Assembly (NCBI GenBank): GCA_011389935.1
Contig: JAABTJ010000010.1
Location: 929 to 64,928 of the forward strand
Direction: 5' to 3'
Length of the DNA stretch: 64,000 bases
Source of the DNA: Desulfobacteraceae bacterium
Lineage (GTDB): Bacteria > Desulfobacterota > Desulfobacteria > Desulfobacterales > Desulfosalsimonadaceae
The notes under the pieces are model-generated. The model made no database searches, had not been told where the DNA came from, and saw nothing but the letters and a program-made list of their open reading frames with translations. Below are positions 1-23,147 of this stretch, one piece after another. Both the position numbers and the translations under genes were made by a program. Within the stretch, counting starts at the first letter, position 1; each line of letters begins with the position of its first letter.

Positions 1-200
1 TTCAAGCGAGGGGTCTCGTCCGGGTCGAAAAAATTATTATACAGCGGCAGCGGTTTTTCAAGCCTGACGTTTCCTGACGCGTCATAGGCAAACGTCAGCT
101 TGATCAGCCCAAACGCCAACTGATCAACGGGCTGCGCCGGATTGATGCCCATGAAGATATCGAAGTCTTCTTTTGGAATGGTCGCTTTGGTTGCCGTCAT
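1..200 (-). CDS. Hypothetical protein, 5' fragment running off the window start; N-terminus resembles DUF2169
   Basis: ATG at 198-200 on the minus strand. Hand translation: MTATKATIPKEDFDIFMGINPAQPVDQLAFGLIKLTFAYDASGNVRLEKPLPLYNNFFDPDETPRL, with no stop before the window edge, so it is absent from the ORF track. The K-x-T-F...D-x-x-G pattern parallels the N-terminus of the DUF2169 protein at 1201-2262. Confidence 0.4.
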   Translation of the reverse strand, partial: MTATKATIPKEDFDIFMGINPAQPVDQLAFGLIKLTFAYDASGNVRLEKPLPLYNNFFDPDETPRL

Positions 201-257: not shown

Positions 258-1181
258 TCAAAGGTCAGTAAAATTGCTCCAGGGAGTCTGGGAATCCGAT
301 GACCCGGCGCCGCCTTGAAAGCCGAAACCATGCGCTTCGGCGCCATGCTGCCCTTCACCGCTCACATCAATAACGCCTTCGCCTCCGACCCATGCGTTGC
401 CCAAACCAATCTTTATCTGAGGATTCCCGGTGCCGGTCAACGCCGTGATTCCCGCTCCGGCGAGGCCACTGATCGCATTTTTGAGCAGATTGTTGCCCTG
501 CGATTTTAAAAACTCTTTTCCGCTGGACCCAAACACCTCGCCAGCAATGGTTCTCATACCTTCTCTGCCGGCAATACGGTTAATTTGCTGGTTCGCATTT
601 CTTGTTACGCCCTTCAACGGATTCCAACTGCCTTTGGAAACCCTGTAAAAAATGAGATCCAGCGCCATGGAGACAGCAATGGAAAGTACTCCTGCCCAAA
701 TATCTCCAGCAGTCAAGCCCACACGAACCGTATTCAACGGACAAATCACCGAGTAACCAAAGGGAATACTAACCGGCTCGCAGCAGCACAGCATGACAAA
801 AGGCGGCCAAATCGTGGTGCAGCCCGTGGCTTTTCCGTCCATCTTCACCGTCGAGGCGCTGAACTTGACCTCCCTTTTGGAAAAGGGCCACATTGTAACA
901 TACCATAAATTGGAGGGGGGGATGGTCACGTCGGGGATAAGCGGGCCGATGTCGTGGCCTTCCTGCATAACGAAGACCCCTTTGTGGAAGACGCTATTTG
1001 TGAATTTGTTTTTCCCTAAAGCGAATCCAGCGGTCCACATCATGGTTGCGATCATTTCCACTCCAACCGTCACCACCGGAGCAGGCACTGCCGGAGGAGC
1101 CAGGAGCATATGCGTGCCCACCGTAATGGGCAGTGTGAAATCCCATATCACATTGACGGGACAAGTGGCTGCACTGGGCAT
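258..1181 (-). CDS. Candidate T6SS cargo effector (family not assignable): Cys-containing beta-rich N-terminal half, Gly-rich/hydrophobic C-terminal half
   Basis: 307-aa ORF lying 19 nt downstream of, and co-directional with, the DUF2169 adaptor gene in the vgrG-distal module. Hydrophobic segment GVLSIAVSMALDLIFY. Gly-rich stretch GLAGAGITALTGTGNPQIKIGLGNAWVGGEG. I recognise no catalytic motif. Confidence 0.6.
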   Translation of the reverse strand: MPSAATCPVNVIWDFTLPITVGTHMLLAPPAVPAPVVTVGVEMIATMMWTAGFALGKNKFTNSVFHKGVFVMQEGHDIGPLIPDVTIPPSNLWYVTMWPFSKREVKFSASTVKMDGKATGCTTIWPPFVMLCCCEPVSIPFGYSVICPLNTVRVGLTAGDIWAGVLSIAVSMALDLIFYRVSKGSWNPLKGVTRNANQQINRIAGREGMRTIAGEVFGSSGKEFLKSQGNNLLKNAISGLAGAGITALTGTGNPQIKIGLGNAWVGGEGVIDVSGEGQHGAEAHGFGFQGGAGSSDSQTPWSNFTDL

Positions 1182-1200: not shown

Positions 1201-2262
1201 TCAGTATTGATTCCATTCCCGGCAGGTCAGGCGAACGGTGCGCTCCGTGCCGGGTACGTATTCGTATGTAAAATTGAACCGGTAGACGATATAAAAACGC
1301 TTTTCTTCAGGAAGAAGGACCAGGGTGTCCGCACGGAGTTTGACCTCGACCCATTTTTCATTCAAAAGCAAATCCGCCCCGATCTCCCATCCGGGAACCG
1401 TAAACTGAAGGAGACCTTCCGGGGTAAGGCCTTCCAAGACCACATCCATGGCCGGGGTAAGCTGCAGATCCAGATCCAGGCTGGGATGGGCCCGGTGCCA
1501 CAGTTTTGATGTCGGGGCAATATCCGGCTTATTCGTCATTATGTCCGGGTCTTTCAGGTCCTGGTCGTTCAAGCCCATGGACCGGAAAGCATGGATGGCT
1601 GTAGACATGGGCACCGTGGCCCAATACGCCGGTGTCGGGGCATCCTCCGGGGAGGAAATGAGGTGGTCCGGGTCTTCGATATTGGGAAGGGGTCGTATTT
1701 CACTGAATCTCGGGTACCCTTCGGGCGTTTTGAACTGACTGGCGATGGAAGGGATCATGGCGGCAACGTTAAACCCTTTCCCGTCCGGGTTGCCGGGGTC
1801 CGCCAGGGTAATAAACGACCCCTGGTCGATTTCAACCTCGGCTTTACCGCCAAAGGCATTGGCATAGGTAATAGGCATTTTTTCAAAGGGTTCCGGATCG
1901 GTCATTTTTCCGTTGTGCCAGAAACGGTTTCCAAATACGGCCAGGGACCGTTTCACCGGACCGACCTGGACAGAAACCGTCGCCTGGGTTGCGGGTCGGC
2001 CGCCCGGCGGATAGGCGCACCCGAGGACAATGACATCCGTGTTTTTCCCCTTGGGCAGGTCGTCCCGGGGGAGAAGCCCAAGGAGGGTTTCCTCATCGTT
2101 CTGGAACATGGGGTATGGATCATCCGTATCCGGCGCACATTGACCGTCACTCCCAATCCGGAATGTCGCCTTGGCCGCCAGCACCCCCATCCGCCGATCA
2201 AATTCGGGCATCTCCCCGACACCAAGGCCGGCGGTCAAAAAGGTGGAATTCACCAGTTCCAT
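1201..2262 (-). CDS. DUF2169-family T6SS adaptor/chaperone protein
   Basis: 353 aa. The N-terminus MELVNSTF...AAKATFRIGSDG...LPKGKNTDVIVLGCAYPPGG...LAVFGNRFW matches the remembered DUF2169 consensus. Positioned downstream of vgrG. Confidence 0.85.
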   Translation of the reverse strand: MELVNSTFLTAGLGVGEMPEFDRRMGVLAAKATFRIGSDGQCAPDTDDPYPMFQNDEETLLGLLPRDDLPKGKNTDVIVLGCAYPPGGRPATQATVSVQVGPVKRSLAVFGNRFWHNGKMTDPEPFEKMPITYANAFGGKAEVEIDQGSFITLADPGNPDGKGFNVAAMIPSIASQFKTPEGYPRFSEIRPLPNIEDPDHLISSPEDAPTPAYWATVPMSTAIHAFRSMGLNDQDLKDPDIMTNKPDIAPTSKLWHRAHPSLDLDLQLTPAMDVVLEGLTPEGLLQFTVPGWEIGADLLLNEKWVEVKLRADTLVLLPEEKRFYIVYRFNFTYEYVPGTERTVRLTCREWNQY

Positions 2263-2271
2263 GCCGCTCCC

Positions 2272-2928
2272 TTAATTCAAATGAATCATCTCGCCCTGGA
2301 CATGGACATCGTCTTTGGCCTTCATGCGGATCTCGCCCCGCCTGGCCGCCATCTGTATGTCTTTGGCAGAAAAGCGCAAGCGCCCCTTGACTTCGATATT
2401 CAAATCGTCGTTTAACAGCCGGAGGACAGGCCCATGCTCCCCCTGTTCGATCTGTAGGACAGGATTGTCCCCGGAATCAACCACGTGAATGGCCTTGTTT
2501 TTTTCCAGCCGGATCGCCGGCCCGGGTTTGGGCGTGTGATCCTCCGCCCCGGCAAGCCCGTCCAGGATTCCGCAGACCAAAGGTTCGAACCAGTTTCCCG
2601 GCTGCTGGAGGAGTACGCGGTCGTGGCGCTGCGGCTTGACGTCCCGGATGCACGGCAGCCACTTCTCCTGCAGCTTTTTTGATGGGTCGGTCCACCGGAT
2701 GAGACATCGGCCCGAAAGTGAGGGGTGATGATTGTCCATGCACATGCCGATCAGTGTCGATGGTGCCCGGGTTTTATCGTATTCGGCGGCAATGGCCGAC
2801 ACCAGGGGTTGTTCATCAACGCCGCCCAACCCATTGGGTTCGCTTCCCGGGCCTTTGTCCATCTCATCACCGTCTTTTTCGACCCGGACGGTTCTGTCAT
2901 AAAGGGATTTAATCATATGGTGCTCCAT
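2272..2928 (-). CDS. VgrG-associated protein with spike-like beta-repeat C-terminus (family not assigned)
   Basis: 218-aa ORF starting 11 nt after the vgrG stop. The C-terminus IRLEKNKAIHVVD...LNIEVKGRLRFSAKDIQMAARRGEIRMKAKDDVHVQGEMIHLN has short alternating beta-strand repeats and ends like the VgrG needle (vgrG ends ...IDVTSSAVNLNS). Confidence 0.7.
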   Translation of the reverse strand: MEHHMIKSLYDRTVRVEKDGDEMDKGPGSEPNGLGGVDEQPLVSAIAAEYDKTRAPSTLIGMCMDNHHPSLSGRCLIRWTDPSKKLQEKWLPCIRDVKPQRHDRVLLQQPGNWFEPLVCGILDGLAGAEDHTPKPGPAIRLEKNKAIHVVDSGDNPVLQIEQGEHGPVLRLLNDDLNIEVKGRLRFSAKDIQMAARRGEIRMKAKDDVHVQGEMIHLN

Positions 2929-2938
2929 TTTAGATGGA

Positions 2939-4996
2939 TTATGAATTCAGATTAACGGCGCTGCTTGTTACATCAATGCTCCCCCCGGACACGGTGATAT
3001 TGCTTCCACCGGCCGCGATCCTCACCTCGCTGCTTGTCACCTGGACCTCGGCTCCGGCCGAGTAGAGCTTGGCCTGGCCGCCGTCAGTCAGCACATGATA
3101 ACCCCCATGATACATATGGGCGGAGCCGTCTTCCAGGCTCACGTGGCTGGAACCCCGCCAGGCATGAAGGGCACCGGTGCTCATGTGCAGGTTGTTGGTC
3201 CCGTCGGTGATTTGAATCAGGGAACCATTGTCATTGAGCACCACCTTCCTCCCCCCGGCGGATTCGAGCTGTACGGCGCCGGAAGGATCATGGAGGCTGA
3301 GATAATGGCCGCTGGTCGAATTCAGCCGCACTTCCTGAACCGCATCATCGAGCACAAGAAACCGGCCGTTCGGCGTGTAGGCATGGATCATCTGCTCCGT
3401 ATCGCAAAGCTTGATGCAGTATCCTGCGGGCGTACACAGGGTGATGGAGTTCCGCTGGTCCTCCATGATAATCCGGCAGTTGTTGTTCGTATTGATACGG
3501 ATAGAAGTCTGGCTGGAATCGTCGTCAAGGGTAAAGACATGGCCATACCGGGTACTGATGATATGCTGCGTCTGATTCTGGGAAGTCACGGGGCTGGCCG
3601 TGTCGGGATTGGGCACCGCGGAGGCAATGATCGGCCGGTCAGGATTTCCATCGATAAAGGTAAGCAGCACCTCGGCCCCCTTGTGCAGCGGAAGGTGCAT
3701 GCCGTATCCGGGACCTGTATGGGGCTGTGCCATGCGAACCCAGCGGGAGGCTTTGCCGCCGCTGTTGCCGCTCTGGTCAAAGGGGAGGATCACCTTGTAG
3801 CGTCCTTCTTCGTCGACTTCCGCGTACTGACCGTCGCCGGCCGCATCGACGGTCGCATTGATGCTGCCGTAAAATCTCGGCATGGCGGTGTTGCATTCCG
3901 GCCGGAACTGGACATCCGCGGGGATCAGAACCAACTGGTTGGTATAGCCCATTCGCCCCCCGCCATCGCCGGATGCCCCTTCCTCCCCGGTAAGAAACCG
4001 GGCGGAGCGCCCCTCATGGCTCACCTCGGTGACCAGGTACCGCTGGTTGCAAGAATCCCGGTAATGGTCCGTCAACTCGAAGATAAACCCGGGGCTGAGA
4101 TTGGCGGCCGTGCTCTCCCCGTAAAAAAGGCGCTCCCGGCACAGGAAGGCCTCGGCCCGGATCCGGGCCAGGGCGTTCCCCTGCTCCGGGGTCTTGAAAT
4201 GCTCGCCGTAAATATAGACCGTCCCCCTCCCCCCCCGTGCATCAACGTCTGCCTCTCCCCTCAGGTCCAGCGTCGGCCGCCGGTAATTATAGTCTTTCAG
4301 CAGTACCCGCATGGGAAGCACCTGGTGGCGGAAGGTAAACGCATGCACGCAATCCTCCTCTACCGGCGCCTGCCCCGACGGGGGGAGATAAGGGACGGCG
4401 GTGCGGCCGGCAACATCCTGGTGCGAGGTGGAGCTGTCGGTGATGATGACCTTGTCGCCGTCATCGGTTTGTTCAAAATAGTAATAAATGCCTTCCCTCT
4501 CCATCCACCGGGAGATAAAATGCAGATCCGTTTCCCTGAACTGGCAGATATACTCCCATGGCTCGTAGCTGCCTGTCAGGCGAAGATCATAGTCATTGCC
4601 GGTCAGGCCCGCCTGCTGCAATATTTCTTCAATGATATCCGGCACGCGTTTATCCAGGAACAACTGGTTTTCGTGGTAAAGGGATGCCTGCCAGAGCCGG
4701 GGGACCAATACAGCCCGGTAAAATACCGTTTCATCGACTTCCTGGAGCTGTTCGAACCGGGAGAGCATCCCGTAAAAGGGCATTTCGGCGTCTGCCTCGG
4801 AAATGGTAAATGCCGCGGGGTTCTGGAGAAGCAGCCGAAAATCAATTTCAGGGTCTTCTGATATCAGCGTAATATCGAACTCGTATAACCGGGACAGCCC
4901 CTCGATTCCTGTAAACCGGGCAACCGTAAACGTATCTGCCGGGTAGGCCCGGGATACGAACGTATACTCCTTTTGCGCCTGGTATCCAACTCTCAT
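2939..4996 (-). CDS. vgrG: T6SS spike protein VgrG (TssI)
   Basis: 685 aa. N-terminus FTGIEGLSRLYEFDITLIS and the gp27/gp5-like core ...RWVRMAQPHTGPGYGMHLPLHKGAEVLLTFIDGNPDRPII are classic VgrG sequences. Confidence 0.95.
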   Translation of the reverse strand: MRVGYQAQKEYTFVSRAYPADTFTVARFTGIEGLSRLYEFDITLISEDPEIDFRLLLQNPAAFTISEADAEMPFYGMLSRFEQLQEVDETVFYRAVLVPRLWQASLYHENQLFLDKRVPDIIEEILQQAGLTGNDYDLRLTGSYEPWEYICQFRETDLHFISRWMEREGIYYYFEQTDDGDKVIITDSSTSHQDVAGRTAVPYLPPSGQAPVEEDCVHAFTFRHQVLPMRVLLKDYNYRRPTLDLRGEADVDARGGRGTVYIYGEHFKTPEQGNALARIRAEAFLCRERLFYGESTAANLSPGFIFELTDHYRDSCNQRYLVTEVSHEGRSARFLTGEEGASGDGGGRMGYTNQLVLIPADVQFRPECNTAMPRFYGSINATVDAAGDGQYAEVDEEGRYKVILPFDQSGNSGGKASRWVRMAQPHTGPGYGMHLPLHKGAEVLLTFIDGNPDRPIIASAVPNPDTASPVTSQNQTQHIISTRYGHVFTLDDDSSQTSIRINTNNNCRIIMEDQRNSITLCTPAGYCIKLCDTEQMIHAYTPNGRFLVLDDAVQEVRLNSTSGHYLSLHDPSGAVQLESAGGRKVVLNDNGSLIQITDGTNNLHMSTGALHAWRGSSHVSLEDGSAHMYHGGYHVLTDGGQAKLYSAGAEVQVTSSEVRIAAGGSNITVSGGSIDVTSSAVNLNS

Positions 4997-7623
4997 TATT
5001 GACTCCCGTTAAAGCTGATATCAAACGATCCGTCTGCTGCGATGCCCAAATGCACCTGGGAGGGCATCTCGGCATCCCCCATTCGCGTCAGAATTTCATG
5101 GGACATGCGCGGCAGGATTGTCCCGGCCATGATGTAATCGATATTTCGGGCGCCGGTTTCCACCTCGGTGCACCGGTTGACGATCTGGGCGACGGCATCG
5201 TCCGAATAGGTCAATTTCATCTTGTGAGTATCGGCCATCCGCTTGACCAGCTTGTCCATTTTCAGGACGACAATATCCTTGAGAATATCCGCCGGCAGGG
5301 TTTTGTACGGAATGAGTTTCATCCGGGCCAGCAGGGCCGGTTTGAAATGATTGCTCAGCACCGGCCGGATCGCATCGGTGACGGTTTCAAGCGGGGGCAT
5401 CTCCTCGCCGGTGCACATCTCCGTAATGATATCGGTTGCCAGGTTGCTGGTCAAAAAAATGACCGTGTTTCGGAAATCGATGCTCCGTCCTTCGCCGTCG
5501 GACAGGCGCCCCTTGTCGAACACCTGATAAAAAAGGCTCATGACCTCAAGGTGCCCCTTTTCCACCTCGTCGATAAGGACGACGGAATATGGCCGCTGGC
5601 GAACGGCTTCCGTCAGAACGCCGCCTTCCCCGTAACCGACATATCCCGGGGGGGAGCCGATCAGGCGGCTGACCGTATGCTTCTCCTGGAACTCGCTCAT
5701 GTTAATGGTGACCATAAAGTTCTCGCCGCCGAACAGGAGTTCGGCAACGGCCAGGCCGGTTTCGGTTTTCCCCACCCCGCTGGGGCCGGCCAGCAAAAAC
5801 ACGCCCAGCGGCTGTGCCGGGTCCTTGATGCCGGCTTTTGCGGATTTGACCGTTTCGGCGATCATTTGCAGCGCCTCATCCTGCCCCTTGATTCTTTTCT
5901 TCAAGGAATCTTCAAGGGCAAGGAGGTTTCTGGCATCATCGCGCATTACCCTGCCCAGGGGGATCCCGGTCCAGTCTGACACCACCTGGCATACCACATC
6001 CGGATCGACCTCTATGGGAACCAGGGGATCCCCCTGGCGAAGGTCCTCAAGCACCCGCGCCCCCTGCTCTATCCGCCCGGCGATATCGCTTTTTTCGGCC
6101 TCGTCTGTGGCGGCATGCAAGGCTTGCCGCAGATCAATAATCTGGTGGGCCGCCTCCCGTTCACCCTGCCATTTTTCTTGTAACCGGGCCAATTCGTTCT
6201 GATGCGCTTCCAATGCCCCTGCAATGGATTCAAAACGGTCCTTGTCCACCGGCAGGCCGTGGTGCCGGTCCCGCTCGATTGCGTCAAGCTCCCTGGTAAG
6301 GTTCTGGATGCTGCGTTCCCTGTCCTCGATAATGCCGGGCTTTGCCGAAAGGAGCACCTTTACCCGGGCCGCGCTGGTATCGAGCAAGTCAACGGCCTTG
6401 TCCGGAAGCTGCCGACCGGTAATGTAGCGGTTGGAAAGCTCGGCAGCGGCCTGGACAGCATCATCCCTGACCACCACGCCGTGGGCCTGTTCGTATTTTT
6501 CCTTCAAGCCGCGCAGGATAAGCACCGCGATTTCCTCGGAGGGTTCATCGAGCTTGACCAGTTGAAATCGCCTGGCCAGGGCCGCATCTTTTTCAAAATA
6601 TTTCTTGTATTCCGACCAGGTGGTTGCGGCAACCGTGCGCAATTCCCCCCTGGCGAGCGCAGGCTTCAGAAGATTGGCCGCGTCACTGGTGCCGGCGGCC
6701 CCGCCCGAGCCGATGAGGGTATGGGCCTCGTCAATAAACAAGATGATCGGTTTCTCCGATGCCTTTACTTCATCGATAACCCCTTTCAAGCGGTTTTCAA
6801 ATTCCCCTTTCATGCCGGCCCCCGCCTGGAGAAGCCCCATGTCAAGCCCCAAAATGGAAACCTCCCGGAGCAATTCGGGAACGTCCCCTTCCACCACGCG
6901 AAGGGCGAGACCTTCCACTACGGCGGTTTTCCCCACACCCGCCTCCCCCACCACGATGGGATTATTCTTGCGCCGCCGGGCAAGGATATCCACCATCTGA
7001 CGGATTTCCCGGTCCCTGCCGAAAACCGGGTCAATCTCCCCGGCAGCCGCTTTGCCCGTAAAGTCGATGCAGAAACGGGACAACGCATCACCCGCAGCCG
7101 GCGCGCCTTCCGGCTGGTCAACGCGCACTTCCCCTTTCCTGGATGTTTCCACGGAATTTTTCGTGATATCCCAAAATGCGGCCATCAGGTTATCCCGGCT
7201 GATCGTGCCCAGCATTTCCGCACTGCTGCCGATTGAAAACTGGGCGGGCCGGTGCAGCAACGCCAGCACCAGTGCGCCGGAACGAATCCGCTGCTCTTCC
7301 AGGTTAATGGAAGCGACCAACCAGCCCTCTTGGAACCAGTCCAGCAGAACAGGCGAGAATACAGGCTTGGCGGCATTTCCGGTTTTAAGGGACTCAAGGG
7401 TCTGGTCCACCGCCTTTTTAAAACGCGACGGGTCAATTTCAAACTGCCGCAGGATCAGGGGGATATCCGATGACTGATTGTCATCGATCAGTCTGGCCAG
7501 CATATGTTCGACGGTCACTTCGTAATGGGTGCGGGATACGCAAAGCCCCGCAGCGGCTTCCAGGCTCCGGGTGCAGTATGCGTTTAAACGGCCCAGCAGC
7601 CCCTTGATATCAACGGTGATCAT
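4996..7623 (-). CDS. clpV: T6SS AAA+ ATPase ClpV (TssH)
   Basis: 875 aa. Clp N-domain plus two AAA+ modules, with Walker A motifs GEAGVGKTA and GPSGVGKTE. Embedded in the T6SS array. Confidence 0.95.
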   Translation of the reverse strand: MITVDIKGLLGRLNAYCTRSLEAAAGLCVSRTHYEVTVEHMLARLIDDNQSSDIPLILRQFEIDPSRFKKAVDQTLESLKTGNAAKPVFSPVLLDWFQEGWLVASINLEEQRIRSGALVLALLHRPAQFSIGSSAEMLGTISRDNLMAAFWDITKNSVETSRKGEVRVDQPEGAPAAGDALSRFCIDFTGKAAAGEIDPVFGRDREIRQMVDILARRRKNNPIVVGEAGVGKTAVVEGLALRVVEGDVPELLREVSILGLDMGLLQAGAGMKGEFENRLKGVIDEVKASEKPIILFIDEAHTLIGSGGAAGTSDAANLLKPALARGELRTVAATTWSEYKKYFEKDAALARRFQLVKLDEPSEEIAVLILRGLKEKYEQAHGVVVRDDAVQAAAELSNRYITGRQLPDKAVDLLDTSAARVKVLLSAKPGIIEDRERSIQNLTRELDAIERDRHHGLPVDKDRFESIAGALEAHQNELARLQEKWQGEREAAHQIIDLRQALHAATDEAEKSDIAGRIEQGARVLEDLRQGDPLVPIEVDPDVVCQVVSDWTGIPLGRVMRDDARNLLALEDSLKKRIKGQDEALQMIAETVKSAKAGIKDPAQPLGVFLLAGPSGVGKTETGLAVAELLFGGENFMVTINMSEFQEKHTVSRLIGSPPGYVGYGEGGVLTEAVRQRPYSVVLIDEVEKGHLEVMSLFYQVFDKGRLSDGEGRSIDFRNTVIFLTSNLATDIITEMCTGEEMPPLETVTDAIRPVLSNHFKPALLARMKLIPYKTLPADILKDIVVLKMDKLVKRMADTHKMKLTYSDDAVAQIVNRCTEVETGARNIDYIMAGTILPRMSHEILTRMGDAEMPSQVHLGIAADGSFDISFNGSQ

Positions 7624-7634
7624 ATGTTCCCCTC

Positions 7635-8663
7635 CTATGCGGCGAATGAATAGACCTTGCGCATTTCCCCGATGCGATCACTGGAAAAAACCCATGAGTT
7701 CAGCCCGAGACGGGCATGATCCGGTTCGCCAAGACAGACGGTTTTCGCTTCTCCTTCAGACAGGACGACTTCAATGTCATATTCCAGGCGCTCCAGGACA
7801 TAAAAATCCGTTAAAAAACGAACCATTTTGTAATTTTCGGCCTCGGGGTAAAAGCCTTGGTACGCTTCCGAGGAAAGCGGACCGATCCGGATAACAAACT
7901 TCCCCATGCGGTCCACTACCTCTTCGCCGATAATCGTGCTTTCACCTAAGCGATGATCCGGCGACCCCAAAAAAAGCCGCTGATCCCCGGGGATTTTTGC
8001 GCGCCTTTTTACGCAGGGGACAAGGCTTACGGGAACACCACCGAGGGCATCGTTCAAAACGGTTTCAAGCCCCATGGCGGAGCGGGGTTTTTGTATCAGC
8101 AGTCCGATATAGCGAATCAGTCGGTGGGGATCCGCAATCGCACCCCTGAGCGGGGCGTCCCCGATTCCCATCAGGCAGAAGATCCTTTCCAGGTGATGCC
8201 GGCTGCCGGCTTCTATGACCTGAAAAGACTGGCGATATTTGGTGCAGCAGTCGTAGAAAAGCTCATAGATACGCTGATTGATCACATCGATAAAATCCCT
8301 GCACACACTTTCATCTTCGGCGGCTTCATGCATCAGCTCTTCTGTATAGAAAGTGGGAAGGGGGGAAGAAATGCCGTAAAGCCCCAGAAAGTTCGCGGTG
8401 ATTTCATACCCCGAATGTTCCTGGCGATCCATTTCCCGGATCCGGTCAATGTCAGCCGGCGGAAACGCCAGTGACAAGGCCGGACGGATGCGGACCGGAT
8501 GGAGCAGTTCTCCGTTCGAATCCATCCGGCCTGCCTCGGTCCGCAGCAGCATTTTGAGAAGCCGCATTGCCTGAAAAAAACTGAAGGCACGGCTGTCCCT
8601 GAGAAGATCCGATTTCAGCATCGGACCGACGCCCGGGCCTGCTTTGGGTTCCTGTGGGGGCAT
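7635..8663 (-). CDS. tssG: T6SS baseplate subunit TssG
   Basis: 342 aa. N-terminal FSFFQAMRLL motif typical of TssG. Lies between tssF and clpV. Confidence 0.9.
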   Translation of the reverse strand: MPPQEPKAGPGVGPMLKSDLLRDSRAFSFFQAMRLLKMLLRTEAGRMDSNGELLHPVRIRPALSLAFPPADIDRIREMDRQEHSGYEITANFLGLYGISSPLPTFYTEELMHEAAEDESVCRDFIDVINQRIYELFYDCCTKYRQSFQVIEAGSRHHLERIFCLMGIGDAPLRGAIADPHRLIRYIGLLIQKPRSAMGLETVLNDALGGVPVSLVPCVKRRAKIPGDQRLFLGSPDHRLGESTIIGEEVVDRMGKFVIRIGPLSSEAYQGFYPEAENYKMVRFLTDFYVLERLEYDIEVVLSEGEAKTVCLGEPDHARLGLNSWVFSSDRIGEMRKVYSFAA

Positions 8664-8680
8664 AAAATGCGGCGCTCCAT

Positions 8681-8860
8681 TTGTTGACGGCTTCGTAAAA
8701 AGCCCAATATCTGCGTTGCGCCCAATCTTTCAATAATCTCACGTACGGCTAAGTACGCTCAATTCTTCAAAAATTGCACGCGCCTTGATCTTGAACTTTT
8801 TTCAAAGCCTTCTGATCAAGACTTTTTGCGATTCCATCATTTGTTGGTTTCACCAAAAGC
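8681..8860 (-). repeat. Copy A of a miniature IS110-related repeat, inserted between tssF and tssG
   Basis: The reverse complement of 8681-8795 aligns without gaps to 48550-48664, with about 9-10 mismatches in 115 nt by eye. Weaker similarity continues to about 8860, against 48505-48549. Confidence 0.8.
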
Positions 8861-8875
8861 GGAGATCTGCCGGAG

Positions 8876-10609
8876 CTATATCAGCGGATGCAGCCCGACG
8901 CGCGCCGGCCATTGGTAAACATCCCCTTTCACGGCCTCGTTTATCGCCATGCGCGTATAGGTATTGATGGACGCATAGTTGCCGAAAAAAAAGTCCATTA
9001 TGTTTCCAAAAAGATACAGATCGCCCGCACCCACGAAATGGTCCTGCCGGATTTTCATTCGCACTTCCAGTCCGCGCATCATCACCCCGGCCACCATCCG
9101 GTTGGAAGGTACGGCCTCAAGGGCTTCAATCCCGGCAATCCGTTTCCGGTTTGCAATGATGGATGTTTTGTCCCTGGTTTCTTCAAAAACATAGAGGCCC
9201 AGTAGTGTGCGCAGGTTTTCGGCCCGGGAAAGAGAGAGGTAGTTTAATGACAAATGGGACAAAAAGCGCCATAACAGGTTGCTCCCGATGGGCGGCAGCA
9301 CATTGTTGGTCGGAACCGTAATGTTCGTAAAATCCACGAATTCGGGGGAGCTGCTGGTGGGGTGCGCAATATCACCAACCTGCAGCCCTTCGGGAAGGCT
9401 GCCGTTGGTGCACTGTACCTTGACGGAAATAATTTCCGTCTGCGGCATATCAGCGGTATCCGGGTAGGCAAAGGAAAGCAGCACGTTGAATCCGCTTCCA
9501 ATGGGCGAACGCCTTAACTTGGTATAATATACCGGTTGGCTCGCCTGTTTTGCGGAAAACAGCTCAAACGGCACGTAGGTTTTCTCTTTTGCGCTGCCCT
9601 GGACAAAACCGGACACCCTGTCGACCGAATACACCTGGTAATGATTTACATTGCTGCCTGCGGGTCGAATCTCGTAATCGGTCTTTCGATGATCCAGGCG
9701 AAACGGATCGGCTTCATGGCTGAAAATATTAATAACCGGTGTCGCCCCCAGAACAAAATTGGAGGCTCTCACGCGGCCGGGTGTAAACGGCGGATTCTCC
9801 AGGACGAAACGGATCGTGAAATCATTGCCCTCCCCCCGATTGATCCAGTTCTGCCAGCCGGAAAGATCCAGAAACAGAAATTTCGAGGGAAGAATGAAAT
9901 ATTCCTGCAAAATCCGGTAGGCCGGAAATGAGTTGGATGGATAGGGAAACAGGCTTTCCGTTTCCTGAAATCCCACCGGGCGCAAACAATCCGGGGGGAG
10001 AATCCGGTTTCTGCCTTTTTCCGAAGGAATCAATTCAATATATTGCAAATATTTCTGCAGCAAAAAAAACAGGTCCGCGGCAGCGGAATAATCGCCCCCC
10101 ATAAAAAACCTTACAAAACCGGGCTGCCAGTCCGAAAGCGGCGGCCCGTTAAGGCGCATCTTCAGGACAATGGCAGGCGGTTGTCCGGCAGGCGCCAGAT
10201 ACCCGGCCTCCAGAACACGCAAGGGATGGACAACGGTCTCGAAACAGGTTCGGAACAGGCAGGGGGTGGCGTCCACGGGAACGGATGCAAGCTGGGCGCC
10301 GGCCGGCACGGTTATGGATTGTTTCAGGGTGGGCTTCGGCGAAAAGGCCACAATCGCAGCCGAAGGAACCGGGCGCAAATAGTGGGGCCATATCAATTGA
10401 ACCAGTTCATGGATAATTTCGGGGAACTCATCGTCTAATTTTTCCCGCAGAAGCGCGGTTAAAAAGGCAACGCCCTCCAAAAGGCGCTCCACGTCCGGAT
10501 CGGTGGAAGACCCGCTCAGCATGGGGGCCACCGCGGGATGGGCCTTTGAAAATGCCTGCCCCAGGTCCCTCAGATGATCAAGCTCCTGTTGAAAATATCG
10601 GTGTAACAA
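8876..10609 (-). CDS. tssF: T6SS baseplate subunit TssF
   Basis: 577 aa. N-terminus MLHRYFQQELDHLRDLGQAFSKAHPAVAPML is the canonical TssF start. Confidence 0.93.
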   Translation of the reverse strand: MLHRYFQQELDHLRDLGQAFSKAHPAVAPMLSGSSTDPDVERLLEGVAFLTALLREKLDDEFPEIIHELVQLIWPHYLRPVPSAAIVAFSPKPTLKQSITVPAGAQLASVPVDATPCLFRTCFETVVHPLRVLEAGYLAPAGQPPAIVLKMRLNGPPLSDWQPGFVRFFMGGDYSAAADLFFLLQKYLQYIELIPSEKGRNRILPPDCLRPVGFQETESLFPYPSNSFPAYRILQEYFILPSKFLFLDLSGWQNWINRGEGNDFTIRFVLENPPFTPGRVRASNFVLGATPVINIFSHEADPFRLDHRKTDYEIRPAGSNVNHYQVYSVDRVSGFVQGSAKEKTYVPFELFSAKQASQPVYYTKLRRSPIGSGFNVLLSFAYPDTADMPQTEIISVKVQCTNGSLPEGLQVGDIAHPTSSSPEFVDFTNITVPTNNVLPPIGSNLLWRFLSHLSLNYLSLSRAENLRTLLGLYVFEETRDKTSIIANRKRIAGIEALEAVPSNRMVAGVMMRGLEVRMKIRQDHFVGAGDLYLFGNIMDFFFGNYASINTYTRMAINEAVKGDVYQWPARVGLHPLI

Positions 10610-10610
10610 G

Positions 10611-11024
10611 TCATCTCCTGATCGTTATTTTCCCGTCCTGCCCCAATTGGCTCTCAAAAACGATTGCTTCCTCTGCGTTGTCAAATGCAAGGCGGGCATG
10701 AATTTCAAAATTGAGCGACAAGAGGCCCTCTTCGATGGGAATATACCGAACCCGAACCGCCCTGAGACGGGGTTCGTATTTCTGAATGGTCTGGCGGATC
10801 GATTTCTCGATCTCCCGCGGCGCCCCCGCCTGACTGTGAAGCACGTCATTAAAGTCGGGCAGGCCGTAATCCTCGGCAATCTGCACCCCGCCCTGCCGTG
10901 TGTTCAGCACGTTCTGAAGATGGGCCATGACGGAATCGACGACCTTGTTCGGATCTTCGGTCATGCTTCGATCCGGCATCTTCGCCCGCATCCGGATCCG
11001 TTCAAGAAGGCGCGCCTCTCTCAT
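10611..11024 (-). CDS. tssE: T6SS baseplate subunit TssE (gp25-like)
   Basis: 137 aa. The size, the LLERIR start and the position between hcp and tssF fit TssE. Confidence 0.88.
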   Translation of the reverse strand: MREARLLERIRMRAKMPDRSMTEDPNKVVDSVMAHLQNVLNTRQGGVQIAEDYGLPDFNDVLHSQAGAPREIEKSIRQTIQKYEPRLRAVRVRYIPIEEGLLSLNFEIHARLAFDNAEEAIVFESQLGQDGKITIRR

Positions 11025-11108
11025 TACGGGTACCCGTATTTACCGTTCGTTACCATCCATTGCCGCCCCCGGCGTATCGGAGGCGCAACGAGCTGCAATC
11101 ACTTACCA

Positions 11109-11624
11109 TCAGCCGCCGGCCGTCCGCCAGTCATCCGAGCCCTCGGTCCCGCCCACCTCGTGGGTCCAGGTAATCATCCGATAGGTAAAGGAGACATCTT
11201 CCAAATGCGTAAAATGGGACTGGGAAGGATCCTGGCAATTGGGCATATAGGCGTGAATATTCGTGATGATAGCGTCTTCCAGGGCAATGGTAAAATAATG
11301 CTCCGGCTGGCCGGAAACACTTGTTCGATACCATTTAAGCTCGCACTGGGTGAGCCTTTCCCCGCTGGTCAGGGCGTAATAAAGCAGCGGGGAGGACTTG
11401 TCAAAAACCTTGGTGATGGTCAGGGGTCTGTGCACCCGCTGGCCGGTGGGCTGACCGGACTGCGGATCCGTCGGCACCGTAACGGTATGATCGAATGCTT
11501 CCACCAGGATCTGATCTTCATGACCTTCCTGGTAAACATTGCCGACACTTTCTTCCGTAAATGCCCCTTGGGTAATCGGCCCCTGGGTTGCGCCTGTAAT
11601 GGACAAATAGCATGGTGTTGGCAT
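11109..11624 (-). CDS. hcp: T6SS inner tube protein Hcp (TssD)
   Basis: 171 aa. MPTPCYLSITGATQGPITQGAF...HRPLTITKVFDKSSPLLYYAL is Hcp-like. Confidence 0.93.
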   Translation of the reverse strand: MPTPCYLSITGATQGPITQGAFTEESVGNVYQEGHEDQILVEAFDHTVTVPTDPQSGQPTGQRVHRPLTITKVFDKSSPLLYYALTSGERLTQCELKWYRTSVSGQPEHYFTIALEDAIITNIHAYMPNCQDPSQSHFTHLEDVSFTYRMITWTHEVGGTEGSDDWRTAGG

Positions 11625-11663
11625 GATCTGATCTCCTTGTTCTTTCGTTGTTATGGGTTGGTT

Positions 11664-13151
11664 TTACTCTTTGTCGAGTTTTCCAACCAAAGACAGCGTA
11701 AAATCAGCGCCCATGTATTTAAAATGCGGCCTGACTTTCAGGCCGACCCTGTACCAGCCGGGTTCGCCCTCTACGTCCTCTACCGTCACCTTTGCCTGCC
11801 GCAGCGGCCGGCGGCTTCTCACTGCGGCGCTTGGATTTTCCTGGTCTGCGACATACTGCCGAATCCATTCGTTGAGTTCGCGGTCCAGATCCATGCGCTC
11901 TTTCCATGTTCCGATATTTTCCCGCTGAATGACTTTCAGGTAGTGGGCCAGCCGGTTGATGACGAACATGTAAGGTAATTGCAGGCCCAGCTTGTAGTTC
12001 AGCTCCGCATCCTTGCCTTCCTTGCTGATGCCGAAAAATTTGGGCTTCTGGACGGAGTTGGCGGAGAAGAACGCCGCATTGTCGCTCCCTTTCCGCATGG
12101 TCAATCCGATAAACCCTTCTTCGGCCAGCTCAAACTCCCTCCGCTCGGAAATCAGGACTTCCGTGGGAATTTTGGTCTGGACCGCTCCCATGGCTTCATA
12201 CTGATGGAGCGGAAGGTCTTCCACCGCACCCCCCCCCATGGGGCCGATGATGTTGGCACACCACCGGTACTTGGCAAAACTGTCGGTCAGGCGGGAAGCG
12301 AAGGTGAACGCGGCATTCCCCCACAAATAATGATCATGACTGGAAGAGACATTTTCCTGGTAATTAAACGCTTTGACCGGCTGCGTATCCGGCCCGTAGG
12401 GAATGCGCAGCAGAAAACGCGGCAATGCAAGGGCCACATACCGGGCATCCTCGCTTTCCCTGAAAGACTGCCACTTGGTGTACTTGGGTCCTTCAAAGAT
12501 GGATTTCAAATCCTTCAGCTGCGGAAGTTTCTGGAAATCATCGAGATCGAAAAACTCCGGGCCGGCCGCCGCGATAAAGGGGGCATGGGCCATGGCGCCC
12601 ACGCTGGCGACGTACTGGAGAAGTTTTATATCCTCCGGACCGGGGCCGAAGTCGAAGTTGGCCACCATGGCGGCATACGGCTTGCCGCCGAACTGGCCGT
12701 ACTCGGCCGTATAAACCGTCTTATAGAGCCCGGATTTCGGAATTTCGGGCGAATCTTCAAAATCTTCCAGCAAGTCGCCCTTGCTGACATTGAGCACTTC
12801 GATCTTGATATTTTCCCTGAAGTTGGTCTTATCCACCAGGTAATTCAGCGACCGCCATGCAGACTCCAGCTTCTGGAATTCCCTGCTGTGAAGGATGGCG
12901 TCCAACTGCAGACTCATCTTGTTGTCGATCTCGGCGATCATCTCGTCGACATCCGCCTTGGAAACCTTTTCCACCTTTTTCCCCGGTTCGATAAGCTGGC
13001 CGATCAGCGCCTCGATCCCTTTTTTGGCCAATCCGTAAGACTCGTCCCCGGGCTTCAGCTTGGTGGCCTGAACAATATCGTCGATCAGGGAGGTCGACTC
13101 CTGGGTTGTTTTTTCGACGCCTGCAGCATCCTGTGTTTGTTCTTCCGGCAT
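11664..13151 (-). CDS. tssC: T6SS contractile sheath large subunit TssC
   Basis: 495 aa. Conserved sheath sequence, for example SWRSLNYLV and LPRFLLRIPYG. Follows tssB. Confidence 0.95.
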   Translation of the reverse strand: MPEEQTQDAAGVEKTTQESTSLIDDIVQATKLKPGDESYGLAKKGIEALIGQLIEPGKKVEKVSKADVDEMIAEIDNKMSLQLDAILHSREFQKLESAWRSLNYLVDKTNFRENIKIEVLNVSKGDLLEDFEDSPEIPKSGLYKTVYTAEYGQFGGKPYAAMVANFDFGPGPEDIKLLQYVASVGAMAHAPFIAAAGPEFFDLDDFQKLPQLKDLKSIFEGPKYTKWQSFRESEDARYVALALPRFLLRIPYGPDTQPVKAFNYQENVSSSHDHYLWGNAAFTFASRLTDSFAKYRWCANIIGPMGGGAVEDLPLHQYEAMGAVQTKIPTEVLISERREFELAEEGFIGLTMRKGSDNAAFFSANSVQKPKFFGISKEGKDAELNYKLGLQLPYMFVINRLAHYLKVIQRENIGTWKERMDLDRELNEWIRQYVADQENPSAAVRSRRPLRQAKVTVEDVEGEPGWYRVGLKVRPHFKYMGADFTLSLVGKLDKE

Positions 13152-13161
13152 ACAAACCTCC

Positions 13162-13650
13162 TTATTTTTCTTCCACCCCGAGTTCTTTTAAAAGCTGTTC
13201 CCGGGCCGCATCATCCTTGACAAGCTCTTGAAGTTTCTTGCGAAATTCAGGCAGGTTGCTGAGCGGACCCTTGAGCGTCGTCAGAGCGCTGCGCAACTCC
13301 AAAAGCCGTTTCAGCTCAGGCGTTTTCCGGGCTATGGCTTCCGGTTCAAAATCCTTCATGGACTCAAAATTCAGCGCAACGTTCATCTCATCATCCGGCT
13401 CTCCGGAAATCTTGTTGGGAACGGTCATGGAAAGTTTGACGTTCTGCTCCTTCAGCACTTCGTTGAAATTGTCCTTGTCGATATTGACAGGTTCCCTTTC
13501 CTCCAGCATCCGGTCATCGGGACTTTGCGTAAAATCGCCCATTACCAGGAGCCTGAGCGGCAATTCGACTTCTTCTTTCGCATCGCCGGTGGCCGGCCGG
13601 TACACGATATTGACCCTTTCCTTCGGCGCCACTGAAGATTCTTTTGCCAT
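13162..13650 (-). CDS. tssB: T6SS contractile sheath small subunit TssB
   Basis: 162 aa. VAPKERVNIVYRP...ELPLRLLVMGDF is the TssB signature region. Confidence 0.95.
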   Translation of the reverse strand: MAKESSVAPKERVNIVYRPATGDAKEEVELPLRLLVMGDFTQSPDDRMLEEREPVNIDKDNFNEVLKEQNVKLSMTVPNKISGEPDDEMNVALNFESMKDFEPEAIARKTPELKRLLELRSALTTLKGPLSNLPEFRKKLQELVKDDAAREQLLKELGVEEK

Positions 13651-13700
13651 TTTTCACCCCCCTTTCTTGCATTGAATACATTATTACCGGTTTTTATCGA

Positions 13701-15323
13701 TTACCGGCTGAGCCGAAGGGCTTCCGCCGGATCAAGTCGCGAAATCCGCTGCAGCACTTCATCCGCCCGATCGCCGGATCGATTGTCCGATATGGCATGG
13801 AAACCGGTCCATGCCAATACGAGCCCTTTCAAGGCCATATCCGGATCCCATCGTTCCAAATGGTAATTGTCAATATCCGCAATAATCTGATCAATGTGCG
13901 GAACCGCCACATGTTTATGCTTGGAGCCCAACAGGATCCGGGACAAGGCCATGCGCCATGACAGCGCCGCCTTGCCGGACGAACTGCGCTGCAATTGCTC
14001 CTGGACCAAGCCTACCGCCTCCTTTATCTTCTTCCGCTGCGCCAATGACTGTGCCTTTTCCATAATTTCAGACACATGATCATCGGTTGTTCCAAAATAT
14101 CCGGCCGAGCCAGGAGCAACCTCACCGCTGCTGTCCGATATGCCGCCCAAAGCAATATGCTTCACCCATTGCCGGGTTTCCGCATCGGCAAAGGGCATGC
14201 CGTCGGAAAAGGTCAGATCATCTATACCGGGAACGCGCATCATAAAAAATGCGGTCTCGTCGCAAATCGCCTTATGGGCCTTTTGGTAGTCCCCCCCCAT
14301 ATGGTCCAGTGCTTCCGCGGAAAGGCGGCATAAATCCAGCCAAAAAATAAAACGGGAAAGTTTCTGCTCGGTTGTAGAGAGCAGCACGCTCCAGTTGCTG
14401 TCCGCTTTTGCCCTTTCAATGGCGTTGATTTCATCGGCCGAGGGGGGTGCAATTTGCGTTTTTCCGTTGCTTGCCGGCGGCAGGGAGGAAATTTTCGCCC
14501 ATGAAGCAATCCGGCGATACCGGTAGGCATCGGGATTTTTCGCATCCTTTTCAAAAAGGCCGACCCCGGCATTGCGAATTTTCTGAAACCCGGCGTTGGC
14601 ATCTTTTATGGCATCCTGTTCGGAGCCCACTTCCCCGGGGTCGGTTTCAATCGCGGCGGCAGGGGCGGTGGTGGAGATTTTCTGAGATCGGGATTCCGGG
14701 GGGGCCGCTTTGGCAGGCGTATCATTGGACGGCGCCTCGCGAGATCCGGCGCCGGTTCCGGAGGGCGGTTCCCGGGCGGCGTTTTTCGCTGCCCGGTCAA
14801 TGAATGTATTGATATGCCGGTTAATGGAATGCAGCAGGGGCGGGTCGGACATGTGCTCCTTAAGCAGTTCATCCAGCTCCAGCAGGTTCTGCCGGATCCG
14901 GGTGAGTTTTTCCATCTCAACCGTCTCATGCATTGCGCCAAGGGGGGCCTCGATCTTTTCCATCCAGAAATAAACGGCGCCGATTCTTCCCCGCATCCGC
15001 TTTTTCGGAGGGAACAGGGTTTCCCAATAGTGCTTGAGCAGATCGCGCAAAATCGTTACACCGGCATCCAATCCATCAATCCCGATGAGATGAACCTGGC
15101 TGACGGCCAGGTAGCTGGCTACCGTCAGGTCTTTTGATTTTTCCGAAAGGATGCGCGCGGCAAGATCGCTGACTTTGTTCCAGTCAACGCCGTCCATGGA
15201 GGAAGGCGAGGAAAGCTTATCGATCTCGGTCTGCAGCGCTTCAAAGTCCGAATCATAACGGATGTCCGAGCCGGCGGGAGTCTCTGGATGGATAGGGGTT
15301 TGCCCCAGCAACAAAAGATCCAT
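13701..15323 (-). CDS. tssA: T6SS protein TssA (ImpA N-terminal domain)
   Basis: 540 aa. ImpA_N-type start: PIHPETPAGSDIRYDSDFEALQTEIDKL. Has a central Pro/Ala-rich linker. Confidence 0.85.
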   Translation of the reverse strand: MDLLLLGQTPIHPETPAGSDIRYDSDFEALQTEIDKLSSPSSMDGVDWNKVSDLAARILSEKSKDLTVASYLAVSQVHLIGIDGLDAGVTILRDLLKHYWETLFPPKKRMRGRIGAVYFWMEKIEAPLGAMHETVEMEKLTRIRQNLLELDELLKEHMSDPPLLHSINRHINTFIDRAAKNAAREPPSGTGAGSREAPSNDTPAKAAPPESRSQKISTTAPAAAIETDPGEVGSEQDAIKDANAGFQKIRNAGVGLFEKDAKNPDAYRYRRIASWAKISSLPPASNGKTQIAPPSADEINAIERAKADSNWSVLLSTTEQKLSRFIFWLDLCRLSAEALDHMGGDYQKAHKAICDETAFFMMRVPGIDDLTFSDGMPFADAETRQWVKHIALGGISDSSGEVAPGSAGYFGTTDDHVSEIMEKAQSLAQRKKIKEAVGLVQEQLQRSSSGKAALSWRMALSRILLGSKHKHVAVPHIDQIIADIDNYHLERWDPDMALKGLVLAWTGFHAISDNRSGDRADEVLQRISRLDPAEALRLSR

Positions 15324-15516
15324 GGGTTAGGCCGATATTTTATTTTGTGTTCATATGAAACAGCAAAAAAAATCGATTACCAAGATCTGCTACTTGTGCT
15401 GCGCTGTAAAATACTCCGGAACAGAGAATGATGGAAATAAATGTCAGGAAATTTTATCTTTCAATACCATAAAAACCGTAAAAAAACCAATATATATTTT
15501 TTCTCCGCAGCCGTTT

Positions 15517-16305
15517 CTAAAACACCTTGCCGCTGGAAATCTCTGTTTCCCCGGCCGACCAGAGGCGGACAAAATCCTCCGGGTTTACAGGGCGGGTAAA
15601 CATCACGAAAAATACCTTCCCCGGGGTGCCGCCGAGAAAAAACGCCTGGGGCACTTCCACGCCATGCTTTTTCAACTGAAGGCCCCAGAGGACCGCCCAG
15701 CGCGACGGTTCCCTTCGGGATGCTTCGTCAAGGGGTATCCATAGCACCTGTTTCTCTTTTAACCGGTCCACAATGTATTCCGCGTCTACCAGGCTCCCGT
15801 GGCTGTCAGCGGGAAACCTGACATCGGAAACGATTTCATCCTTGTCCACAATTTCGGTGCAATCCTGTCCCGGCGGTGCTATCCGGCGGACGGCATTCCC
15901 CAGTTCCTGCAGGCTGTCAAATCGTCTTGAAGCAACATATTCGATCTGTTGCCAGCTTGTTTCAAGCAGCCGGGGGAGAAACTCCCAGTTTTTTTCCCAT
16001 CCGTTGCAGGCCCCGGTGCCGACGATCAACAAGGGATAAGGACGCCCGATTCCATCACTGCTGGCTTTTAAAAAACCGCAGACCATCTGCCCCTTTTTTA
16101 TTCCTTTTGCCCAGAAACGCCAGAAACAAATGGCGCGGCGGGCTTCCGAATATTTGGGCAGGGCGGAAAACCCTTTGTCCATCCAGGTTGCGAACGCGGA
16201 CTGAAGCGGCGTGCTGAACTGCAGCTGAAAATAGTCTTTTCCCAGCGGGTGTTTCCCGCAAACCGCCCAGTGCCATCCGTCTTTGTCCTTGCCTAATCCC
16301 AGCAT
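15517..16305 (-). CDS. tagF: T6SS-associated protein TagF (DUF2094/ImpM-like)
   Basis: 262 aa. CGKHPLGKDYF...WMDKGF...FWRFW...SSDGIGRPYPLLIV matches the TagF pattern. Overlaps the tssM 3' end by 13 nt. Confidence 0.8.
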   Translation of the reverse strand: MLGLGKDKDGWHWAVCGKHPLGKDYFQLQFSTPLQSAFATWMDKGFSALPKYSEARRAICFWRFWAKGIKKGQMVCGFLKASSDGIGRPYPLLIVGTGACNGWEKNWEFLPRLLETSWQQIEYVASRRFDSLQELGNAVRRIAPPGQDCTEIVDKDEIVSDVRFPADSHGSLVDAEYIVDRLKEKQVLWIPLDEASRREPSRWAVLWGLQLKKHGVEVPQAFFLGGTPGKVFFVMFTRPVNPEDFVRLWSAGETEISSGKVF

Positions 16306-23134: not shown

Positions 23135-23147
23135 AATAAAACCGCCG

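Follow-up and report, generated by a model that had tools for sequence, protein, structure and literature searches.

A widespread unannotated protein family accompanied by two DUF2169 paralogues: candidate VgrG tip proteins of type VI secretion modules

Which protein completes the spike of a type VI secretion system (T6SS) when its gene cluster has no recognisable PAAR gene? This question is raised by a stretch of 64,000 nucleotides from a Desulfobacteraceae bacterium (contig JAABTJ010000010.1, positions 929 to 64,928; the whole stretch is called the window), in which a gene at 258..1181 on the minus strand, close to vgrG, encodes a protein of 307 amino acids (aa). In the explanation that we favour, to which we give about an even chance of being correct, this protein (the client) is chaperoned and takes the place of PAAR or PIPY proteins on VgrG; its module would be a fourth type of Tvp/DUF2169 system, and the client is possibly membrane-active. 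This explanation is based on the constant association of the client with a pair of DUF2169 proteins, a mini-VgrG and VgrG, on the survival of the trio formed by the two DUF2169 genes (a and b) and the client gene through a change in gene order, and on the roles of DUF2169 and TvpC in the literature (PMC11883445, PMC13373197). It is further based on the absence of any other tip protein, since DUF4150 and PAAR are missing from both the module and the T6SS core operon of the window, on a 218-aa neighbour which resembles VgrG and ends in the VgrG tip motif, and on the lack of a fused toxin domain in ten long members of the family and of a conserved immunity gene in the window's branch.

The reality of the gene was assessed with its orthologue at locus L008, from a metagenome-assembled genome of Desulfosalsimonadaceae, where it appears in NCBI as a "hypothetical protein". 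The gene has an ATG start in the open reading frame (ORF) call, and all motif strings quoted for it in a first-pass annotation of the window were found in its translation. The L008 protein is 86% identical to that of the window: residues 1-91 are unchanged and the differences fall mostly in a linker at residues 182-218. At the codon level 92 differences are synonymous-only and 42 are non-synonymous. Because synonymous-only changes outnumber the others, 258-1181 is a genuine gene under purifying selection. Several identities were considered for its product and set aside. A lipoprotein or a secreted protein was ruled out, the signal peptide being absent and Cys7 not conserved; so were a prePAAR effector, since inspection by eye revealed no AARxxDxxxH motif, and a TvpD-like thiolase fold, for which there was no Pfam match. 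A COMMD-like protein (PMC13392464) was also considered, and the corresponding Pfam COMM match is absent.

Comparison of the window protein with Pfam, NCBIfam and PHROGs matched no family, in agreement with the first-pass annotation, which had recognised no toxin, PAAR or DUF4150 signature in it. Sequence searches of PDB chains, with the single protein or with the family profile, returned noise only (e.g. a beta-lactamase at E=0.087 on the helical part). A word-indexed search retrieved 18 relatives, whereas an exhaustive profile search retrieved 868 representatives of 50%-identity clusters at E<=1e-3, 197 of which score below 1e-30. Pfam scans of 18 and then 76 relatives (94 member scans) gave nothing usable and no DUF4150 match; the members have neither a Pfam domain nor an informative name. 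The window protein thus belongs to a large, unannotated family, the novelty of which had been suggested as a possibility at first pass: none of the 868 clusters is annotated, and no match to a housekeeping family was found. Nearly all members are about 270-340 aa long. The family is spread over Desulfobacterales, Myxococcota, Planctomycetota, Gemmatimonadota and several gamma- and alphaproteobacterial lineages; a tblastn search against plasmids gave no match. Among 195 representatives, H24, G52, V64, D77, G79, N91, F107, V112, C133, P136, P140, G155, D160 and G164 are near-invariant. H24 and C133 are the only Cys or His residues in this set, H76 being kept in 83% of the representatives (otherwise Asn), H66 in 69% and C121 in 67%.

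The genes around the client in the window lie on one strand in the order ClpV, VgrG, 218-aa protein, DUF2169a, client, DUF2169b. The VgrG spike (2939..4996, minus strand; Phage_GPD E=1.6e-82, TIGR03361 E=3.2e-110) has 685 aa and a blunt beta-prism end (...VNLNS). DUF2169 paralogue a, of the TvpA type (1201..2262, minus strand; Pfam DUF2169 E=5.4e-52), has 353 aa and lies upstream of the client gene, from which it is separated by a 19-nucleotide gap. Paralogue b is cut by the edge of the window, where its N-terminal 66 codons occupy 1..200 on the minus strand (DUF2169 profile 4e-06). Its counterpart at L008 has 421 aa and an N-terminus that agrees with this fragment; orthologues range from 396 to 430 aa, and the b genes of L001, L002 and L005 have Pfam DUF2169 matches. 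The gene order therefore bears out the position given to the client at first pass, behind vgrG and a DUF2169 gene, as well as the DUF2169-like nature of the next gene (1-200, minus strand). Upstream the module adjoins a T6SS core operon (4996..21856, minus strand) with genes assigned by Pfam to ClpV (4996-7623, minus strand), TssG, TssF, TssE, Hcp, TssC, TssB, TssA, TagF, TssM, TssL and TssK; no TssJ was recognised in the cluster by these assignments. Local hidden Markov models (HMMs) of PAAR and DUF4150 found no gene of either type in the 64-kb window, which confirms that the cluster is without a PAAR gene.

To what extent is this arrangement conserved? Loci were collected by exact-protein look-ups and by a scan of GTDB representative genomes, and their ORFs were annotated with local profiles and clustered. 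The counts given here refer to 26 non-redundant loci, which represent at least seven phyla or orders. Each of the 26 encodes the client and two DUF2169 proteins; a homologue of the 218-aa protein is found in 24/26 and VgrG in 20/26, the remainder being limited by contig reach. Every homologue examined thus adjoins DUF2169, and also vgrG where the contig is long enough, an outcome in line with what the first-pass annotation expected of a neighbourhood survey. ORF clustering revealed no other family conserved in the module. Carriers include Desulfobacterales, Myxococcota (Enhygromyxa salina SWB005), Gemmata, Gemmatimonadota, Lysobacterales, Granulosicoccus, Oceanospirillales and Limibaculum. In the main branch the order is VgrG, an optional gene of the 218-aa type, DUF2169a, client, DUF2169b and again an optional gene of the 218-aa type. 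The two DUF2169 proteins, a (about 356 aa) and b (about 414 aa), form separate clades, with a mean distance of 0.62 within a, 0.61 within b and 0.89 between a and b; the split between the paralogues is ancient. In a distant branch, whose clients are about 24% identical to the window protein, the genes run VgrG, short prism protein, a, b, client; of the two DUF2169 proteins of this branch the first clusters with a, the second with b. As this branch keeps a, b and the client in another order, the trio predates the split of the branches and survived rearrangement.

PAAR or DUF4150 genes are rare around these modules. No such gene is present within 10 kb in 24/26 loci, and all 26 loci together hold two, at L005 and L023, each located after a second vgrG (regions 14543-19240 and 7200-10056, respectively); the DUF4150 gene of L005 also has its own DUF2169 gene. 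A PIPY or PAAR gene does not belong to the module. The two exceptions have features of their own. At L005 the DUF4150 (PIPY) protein, on the same contig as the module studied here, has 621 aa (17375-19240), and its C-terminal portion of about 480 aa consists of acidic helical repeats without Pfam match. The L023 gene (9187-10056) encodes a canonical PAAR domain, which matches 9rce_c at 7.5e-16, fused to an HExxH-containing domain similar to the botulinum-neurotoxin-like light-chain metalloprotease (E about 0.008 for 9b6m_A and 9gy5_A).

The 218-aa neighbour of the client (2272..2928, minus strand) has no match in Pfam, DUF6484 and DUF3540 included. Profile comparison with hhalign aligned it with the OB fold of VgrG (E=2.5e-4), the prism part and the very C-terminus being collinear, and its profile matches the VgrG structure 8gra_I at E=1e-5. 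In addition, the last 12 residues of VgrGs and of these small proteins share the motif x-V-x-V-x-G-x-x-I-x-L-N, with a mean BLOSUM62 score of 20.9 for the last 12 residues vs -9.0 +/- 8.7 for residue-shuffled tails. By its sequence profile, this neighbour is a mini-VgrG of the TvpC type, with a predicted OB fold and a short beta-prism. It follows DUF2169b in most loci, and L005 has two copies. As neither DUF6484 nor DUF3540 matched, the TvpC-like family of these modules is also unannotated. Two elements are hereby added to the first-pass annotation: the client is flanked by two specialised DUF2169 paralogues, and its 218-aa neighbour is a TvpC-type mini-VgrG.

These elements can be compared with known DUF2169 systems. 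DUF2169 proteins chaperone PIPY (DUF4150) tips on VgrG, with a co-occurrence of about 1:1, and the synteny types A-C described for them all contain DUF4150, about 20% of single-domain DUF2169 loci being left uncategorised (Sachar et al. 2025, PMC11883445). Monlezun et al. 2026 defined Tvp classes I-III, in which TvpA is DUF2169, an optional co-chaperone is either the thiolase-like TvpD (PRK06147) or the pentapeptide-repeat TvpB, and TvpC is a VgrG mimic that keeps the PAAR-like protein in a pre-complex until VgrG takes over; classes II and III have one more accessory gene, placed between those for DUF2169 and the PAAR-like protein (PMC13373197). The present module has in common with these classes a VgrG, a DUF2169 (TvpA) gene beside the client, which in the window has DUF2169 genes on both sides, a small trimer candidate of the TvpC type, the 218-aa mimic of the VgrG OB fold and prism (a component of classes II and III), and one client gene, and it likewise occurs in or beside T6SS clusters. 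It differs in its second accessory, which is a DUF2169 paralogue of a separate clade and not TvpD or TvpB, neither of which was found in the module; in its TvpC-like protein, which matches neither DUF6484 nor DUF3540; and in its client, which is not DUF4150. Because of this last difference we file the module as a variant and not as a member of classes I-III. The orders a-client-b and a-b-client fall outside synteny types A-C (PMC11883445), and two specialised DUF2169 paralogues together with a TvpC-type mini-VgrG constitute an organisation outside the three described ones. Related clusters may have been seen elsewhere: a paper on the origin of COMMD proteins reports Myxococcota clusters with a Ser/Thr kinase, DUF2169, OB-fold, VgrG and "PAAR" folds, and for Polyangium fumosum (TKD03568-TKD03571) an AlphaFold hetero-hexamer of one homotrimer and three single proteins (PMC13392464). 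Our module would yield the stoichiometry of this hexamer, and the genes may be those of such a module; the scanned ORFs gave no COMM domain match. At the Enhygromyxa salina locus (L016) a Ser/Thr protein kinase gene (8010-8900) lies between the mini-VgrG and DUF2169a.

A structural model of the client was obtained with AlphaFold2 (AF2). With an alignment of 18 sequences the model was unusable (predicted local distance difference test, pLDDT, 50.7), whereas an alignment of 118 sequences gave a confident one, with a mean pLDDT of 85.6, a predicted template modelling score (pTM) of 0.79 and pLDDT >90 over residues 1-180. The N-domain (residues 1-157; 711..1181, minus strand; pLDDT >90) is predicted to be beta-rich, with 12 short strands that run through residue 156. 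It contains H24, G52, H76/D77, G79, N91, F107, V112, C133, P136, P140 and G155, and three "T/S-T-V-x-h-x-G" strand-turn motifs (residues 61-71, 109-119 and 150-155). Self-alignment revealed no significant internal repeat, the best off-diagonal match being 109-119 vs 61-71 at E=0.37. A beta-rich N-half with sparse Cys and His residues, as described at first pass, is therefore recovered by the model, with the qualification that of these residues only H24 and C133 are near-invariant.

The N-domain is followed by a hydrophobic helix at residues 158-181 (GDIWAGVLSIAVSMALDLIFYRV; 639..710, minus strand; helix in the AF2 model). Its Kyte-Doolittle mean over 19 residues reaches 1.88 at 161-179, which is borderline, and it is the sole segment with transmembrane-like hydrophobicity; the median hydrophobicity maximum of the family falls at about position 155, and D160 and G164, at the start of the helix, are each 97% conserved. 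Then come a poorly conserved helical linker (residues 182-218; 528..638, minus strand; pLDDT about 57-60) and a second long helix (residues 219-249; 435..527, minus strand; pLDDT 75-89) with the Gly/Ala-rich segment LLKNAISGLAGAGITALTG, which stays below transmembrane hydrophobicity and whose G239 is kept in 118/181 members. The C-terminal part (residues 250-307; 261..434, minus strand) has a conserved "NPxxK" motif and then, in the AF2 model, four strands (255-261, 265-272, 280-285 and 288-292; pLDDT about 84-88) and a short helix at the C-terminus; the family consensus in this part is "G.PT.K...G". Linker length varies from 11 to 95 aa among 180 aligned members and reaches roughly 200 aa in long ones. 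These long members (430-530 aa) owe their extra length solely to an inserted charged coiled coil, which separates the hydrophobic helix from the conserved C-terminal part, so that the helical hairpin is of very variable length; no fused toxin domain was found in the 10 long members scanned. The insertion measures roughly 150-250 aa in P0039, P0067, P0071 and P0144, where it is a repetitive coiled coil rich in Lys, Glu and Ala. The hydrophobic helix and the Gly-rich segment noticed at first pass thus both exist, while the latter is not a conserved GxxxGxxxG zipper; the glycine-zipper pore-former suggested there is weak, as it rests on one borderline hydrophobic helix and non-conserved glycines.

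How could such a protein work as a tip? The N-domain, closed by the C-terminal strands, would dock on the blunt end of the VgrG beta-prism. The client would dock first on a mini-VgrG trimer, in a TvpC-like pre-complex, and then on VgrG, while DUF2169 a and b would shield its hydrophobic surfaces, helix 158-181 included, until firing. The chaperones would remain behind and the spike would carry the client out of the cell, after which the helical hairpin of the client may enter the target membrane or disturb it. Binding of the client to the prism end of VgrG is a prediction from genomic context, and we likewise infer tip binding, the surfaces covered by each chaperone, secretion and any membrane activity. 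A more ambitious version is that the client is a structurally new tip, with a fold unrelated to PAAR or PIPY, loaded from a mini-VgrG pre-complex with a dedicated DUF2169 pair, and that its hairpin inserts into membranes, the spike itself being the effector; we regard this version as tentative and on the improbable side. If true, it would define a fourth Tvp class in which a hairpin of 11 to roughly 200 residues is carried at the tip of the spike.

The client has several points in common with accepted tips. With DUF4150/PIPY proteins (PF13665; Tse7 PA0099, Tde2, VP1415, Serratia Paar1) it shares the slot 3' of vgrG and beside a DUF2169 gene, DUF2169 flanking being seen in 26/26 loci and VgrG wherever the contig allows; it is also cytoplasmic, without signal peptide, has a beta- and Pro-rich N-domain and may stand alone. 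Unlike them it is partnered by two DUF2169 proteins and not one, its C-half is a fixed helical hairpin plus beta strands and not a polymorphic toxin domain, and Foldseek found no match between its model and the DUF4150 domain in 8qjc_A. Like PAAR proteins (PF05488; 4JIV, 4JIW) it could cap the VgrG prism, and its His and Cys residues could bind metal: H24, C133 and H76/D77 might make a site comparable to the internal Zn site of PAAR proteins, a weak PAAR-like hint. Its three "STVK.xGKP"-like motifs are a similarly weak one, "S-T-V-x-h-x-G-(K-P)" being reminiscent of the PAAR "GS.TV.I.G.PAAR.GD". The client is about three times longer than PAAR proteins. Canonical PAAR proteins do not need a DUF2169 chaperone and are rarely encoded beside one (PMC11883445).

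Several results weigh against a role at the tip. A Foldseek comparison of the client model with the PDB found no similar fold (best E=3.4), although the copy searched includes the PAAR chains 4jiv, 4jiw, 9rce_c, 8gra_J, 7pq5_L and 6ox6 and the DUF4150 domain in 8qjc_A; over PDB and BFVD nothing fell below E=0.39. Comparisons with DUF4150 by hhalign were run with the single sequence, the alignment and the N-domain only, in local and global modes, and none was significant. The family alignment against a self-built DUF4150 alignment of 28 sequences gave a probability of 0.7%, and the N-domain alone 7.4% (E=0.0048 over 20 columns). The P(I/V)P(Y/F) PIPY motif is missing, the family consensus being "WPFSSRK" at residues 98-103. 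A PAAR-like or PIPY-like cone is not demonstrated by structure or by sequence, and the tails of VgrG and mini-VgrG do not covary within loci (p=0.35). Finally, small membrane proteins lie beside the module in some branches; their presence fits a purely structural tip no better than it fits a toxin with its immunity protein. The degenerate PAAR-like fold suggested at first pass is not shown by these comparisons, Foldseek retrieving neither PAAR nor DUF4150 and hhalign probabilities staying at 0.7-7%. We nevertheless consider, as a doubtful possibility compatible with the explanation that we favour, that the N-domain is a true and extremely diverged PAAR/DUF4150 member overlooked by profiles, in which case the client would be of a kind already known. 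Pfam PAAR_motif does not match the window protein and weakly matches 3/76 members (best E=0.038, below threshold); hhalign with a small self-built PAAR alignment is collinear over residues 23-145, pairing H24 with a PAAR His and C133 with the HGG His, at a non-significant probability of 2.7%; and in the likewise non-significant N-domain comparison residues 57-76 align with the last strand motif of DUF4150, both having a "PDV..(T/P)P ... P(F/Y)" pattern. All these scores are at noise level, as was an hmmsearch with the PAAR alignment, and the GDEPG..GGV.SG core of DUF4150 is missing from the family along with the PIPY motif.

The membrane-protein neighbours lead to another explanation, which we hold to be rather unlikely: the client would be a membrane-acting cargo effector, pore-forming or depolarising, that rides on VgrG without capping it, and the DUF2169 pair would serve as adaptors or chaperones for its hydrophobic helices. 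Ssp6 and Tse4 are small membrane-depolarising T6SS effectors; the client resembles them in its small size, its hydrophobic and Gly/Ala-rich helices, its lack of an enzymatic motif and, in some branches, the adjacent small membrane proteins. It differs from them in its conserved beta-rich N-domain and its obligatory chaperone pair, the window's branch is without an immunity-like gene, and our database searches detected no homology to these effectors. The hydrophobic helix 158-181, with the second long helix after it, suits such an effector, and two kinds of neighbours look immunity-like. In 5/7 loci of the distant branch the gene immediately after that of the client encodes a conserved protein of about 105-115 aa with two transmembrane helices (among them L032 8882-9229; L033 8977-9297; L035 5968-6309; L036 5932-6249); this protein has no Pfam match, and a homologue sought in the main branch was not found. 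Five main-branch loci (L017 521-1087; L020 7039-7791; L022 8381-8917; L023 2487-3065; L024 8281-8814) encode a protein of about 180-250 aa, also with two transmembrane helices, between vgrG and DUF2169a. This family has its two transmembrane helices at the N-terminus and a soluble C-domain, and is placed like Serratia vai1. Vai1 is a membrane-anchored immunity protein whose gene directly follows vgrG1; the spike of the Tvp system to which it belongs depolarises target cells (PMC13373197). By contrast, the modules of the window's branch (window, L001, L005, L008) contain no ORF with two transmembrane helices and no conserved immunity-like gene. Moreover PIPY tip domains are so far the only proteins for which binding by DUF2169 has been shown (PMC11883445), a single helix reaches transmembrane hydrophobicity and this helix contains conserved Asp residues, the glycines do not form a conserved zipper, and a client that does not cap VgrG would leave the module without any tip protein. 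We judge it still less probable, indeed quite improbable, that the client is a non-secreted accessory or co-chaperone, like TvpD or TvpB, that helps to load a PAAR/PIPY protein encoded elsewhere. The module would then consist of three accessories and a pre-complex scaffold with no client, unlike the three described classes, and the protein has no similarity to thiolase-like or pentapeptide-repeat accessories. Its lack of detectable PAAR/PIPY similarity agrees with such a role, as does the extra gene of classes II and III (PMC13373197). The nearby PAAR and DUF4150 genes of L005 and L023 could also be taken in this sense, but they follow their own vgrG, that of L005 with its own DUF2169, and the other 24 loci have none within 10 kb.

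Other features were observed around the modules. The head of the window's operon is formed by two ORFs of 273 and 445 aa without Pfam match (22376-24485, minus strand). Two antisense shadow ORFs of 588 and 326 aa, at 3095-4861 and 4999-5979 on the plus strand, lie within vgrG and clpV; similar antisense ORFs gave spurious "conserved" clusters when the ORFs of all loci were clustered. ORFs of about 500 aa with matches to both TssB (VipA) and TssC (VipB) occur near the module at L008 (10848-12419) and L032 (3687-5198) and look like a fused sheath-like paralogue. A double-FHA protein is encoded directly 3' of DUF2169b at L008.

What does this family mean for T6SS biology? Two general statements have been made about DUF2169 systems, namely a strict co-occurrence of DUF2169 with DUF4150/PIPY (PMC11883445) and the distribution of all such systems into three classes (PMC13373197). 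The client family breaks both, since it is widespread and comes with two DUF2169 paralogues and no PIPY gene, and it may account for part of the approximately 20% of single-domain DUF2169 loci without an assigned category in PMC11883445. If the client is a cargo toxin, the known client range of DUF2169 widens. If, as we favour, it caps VgrG, it represents a new tip family and would explain how apparently PAAR-less T6SS clusters are completed. Either way, the module offers a defined five-gene unit for experiment.

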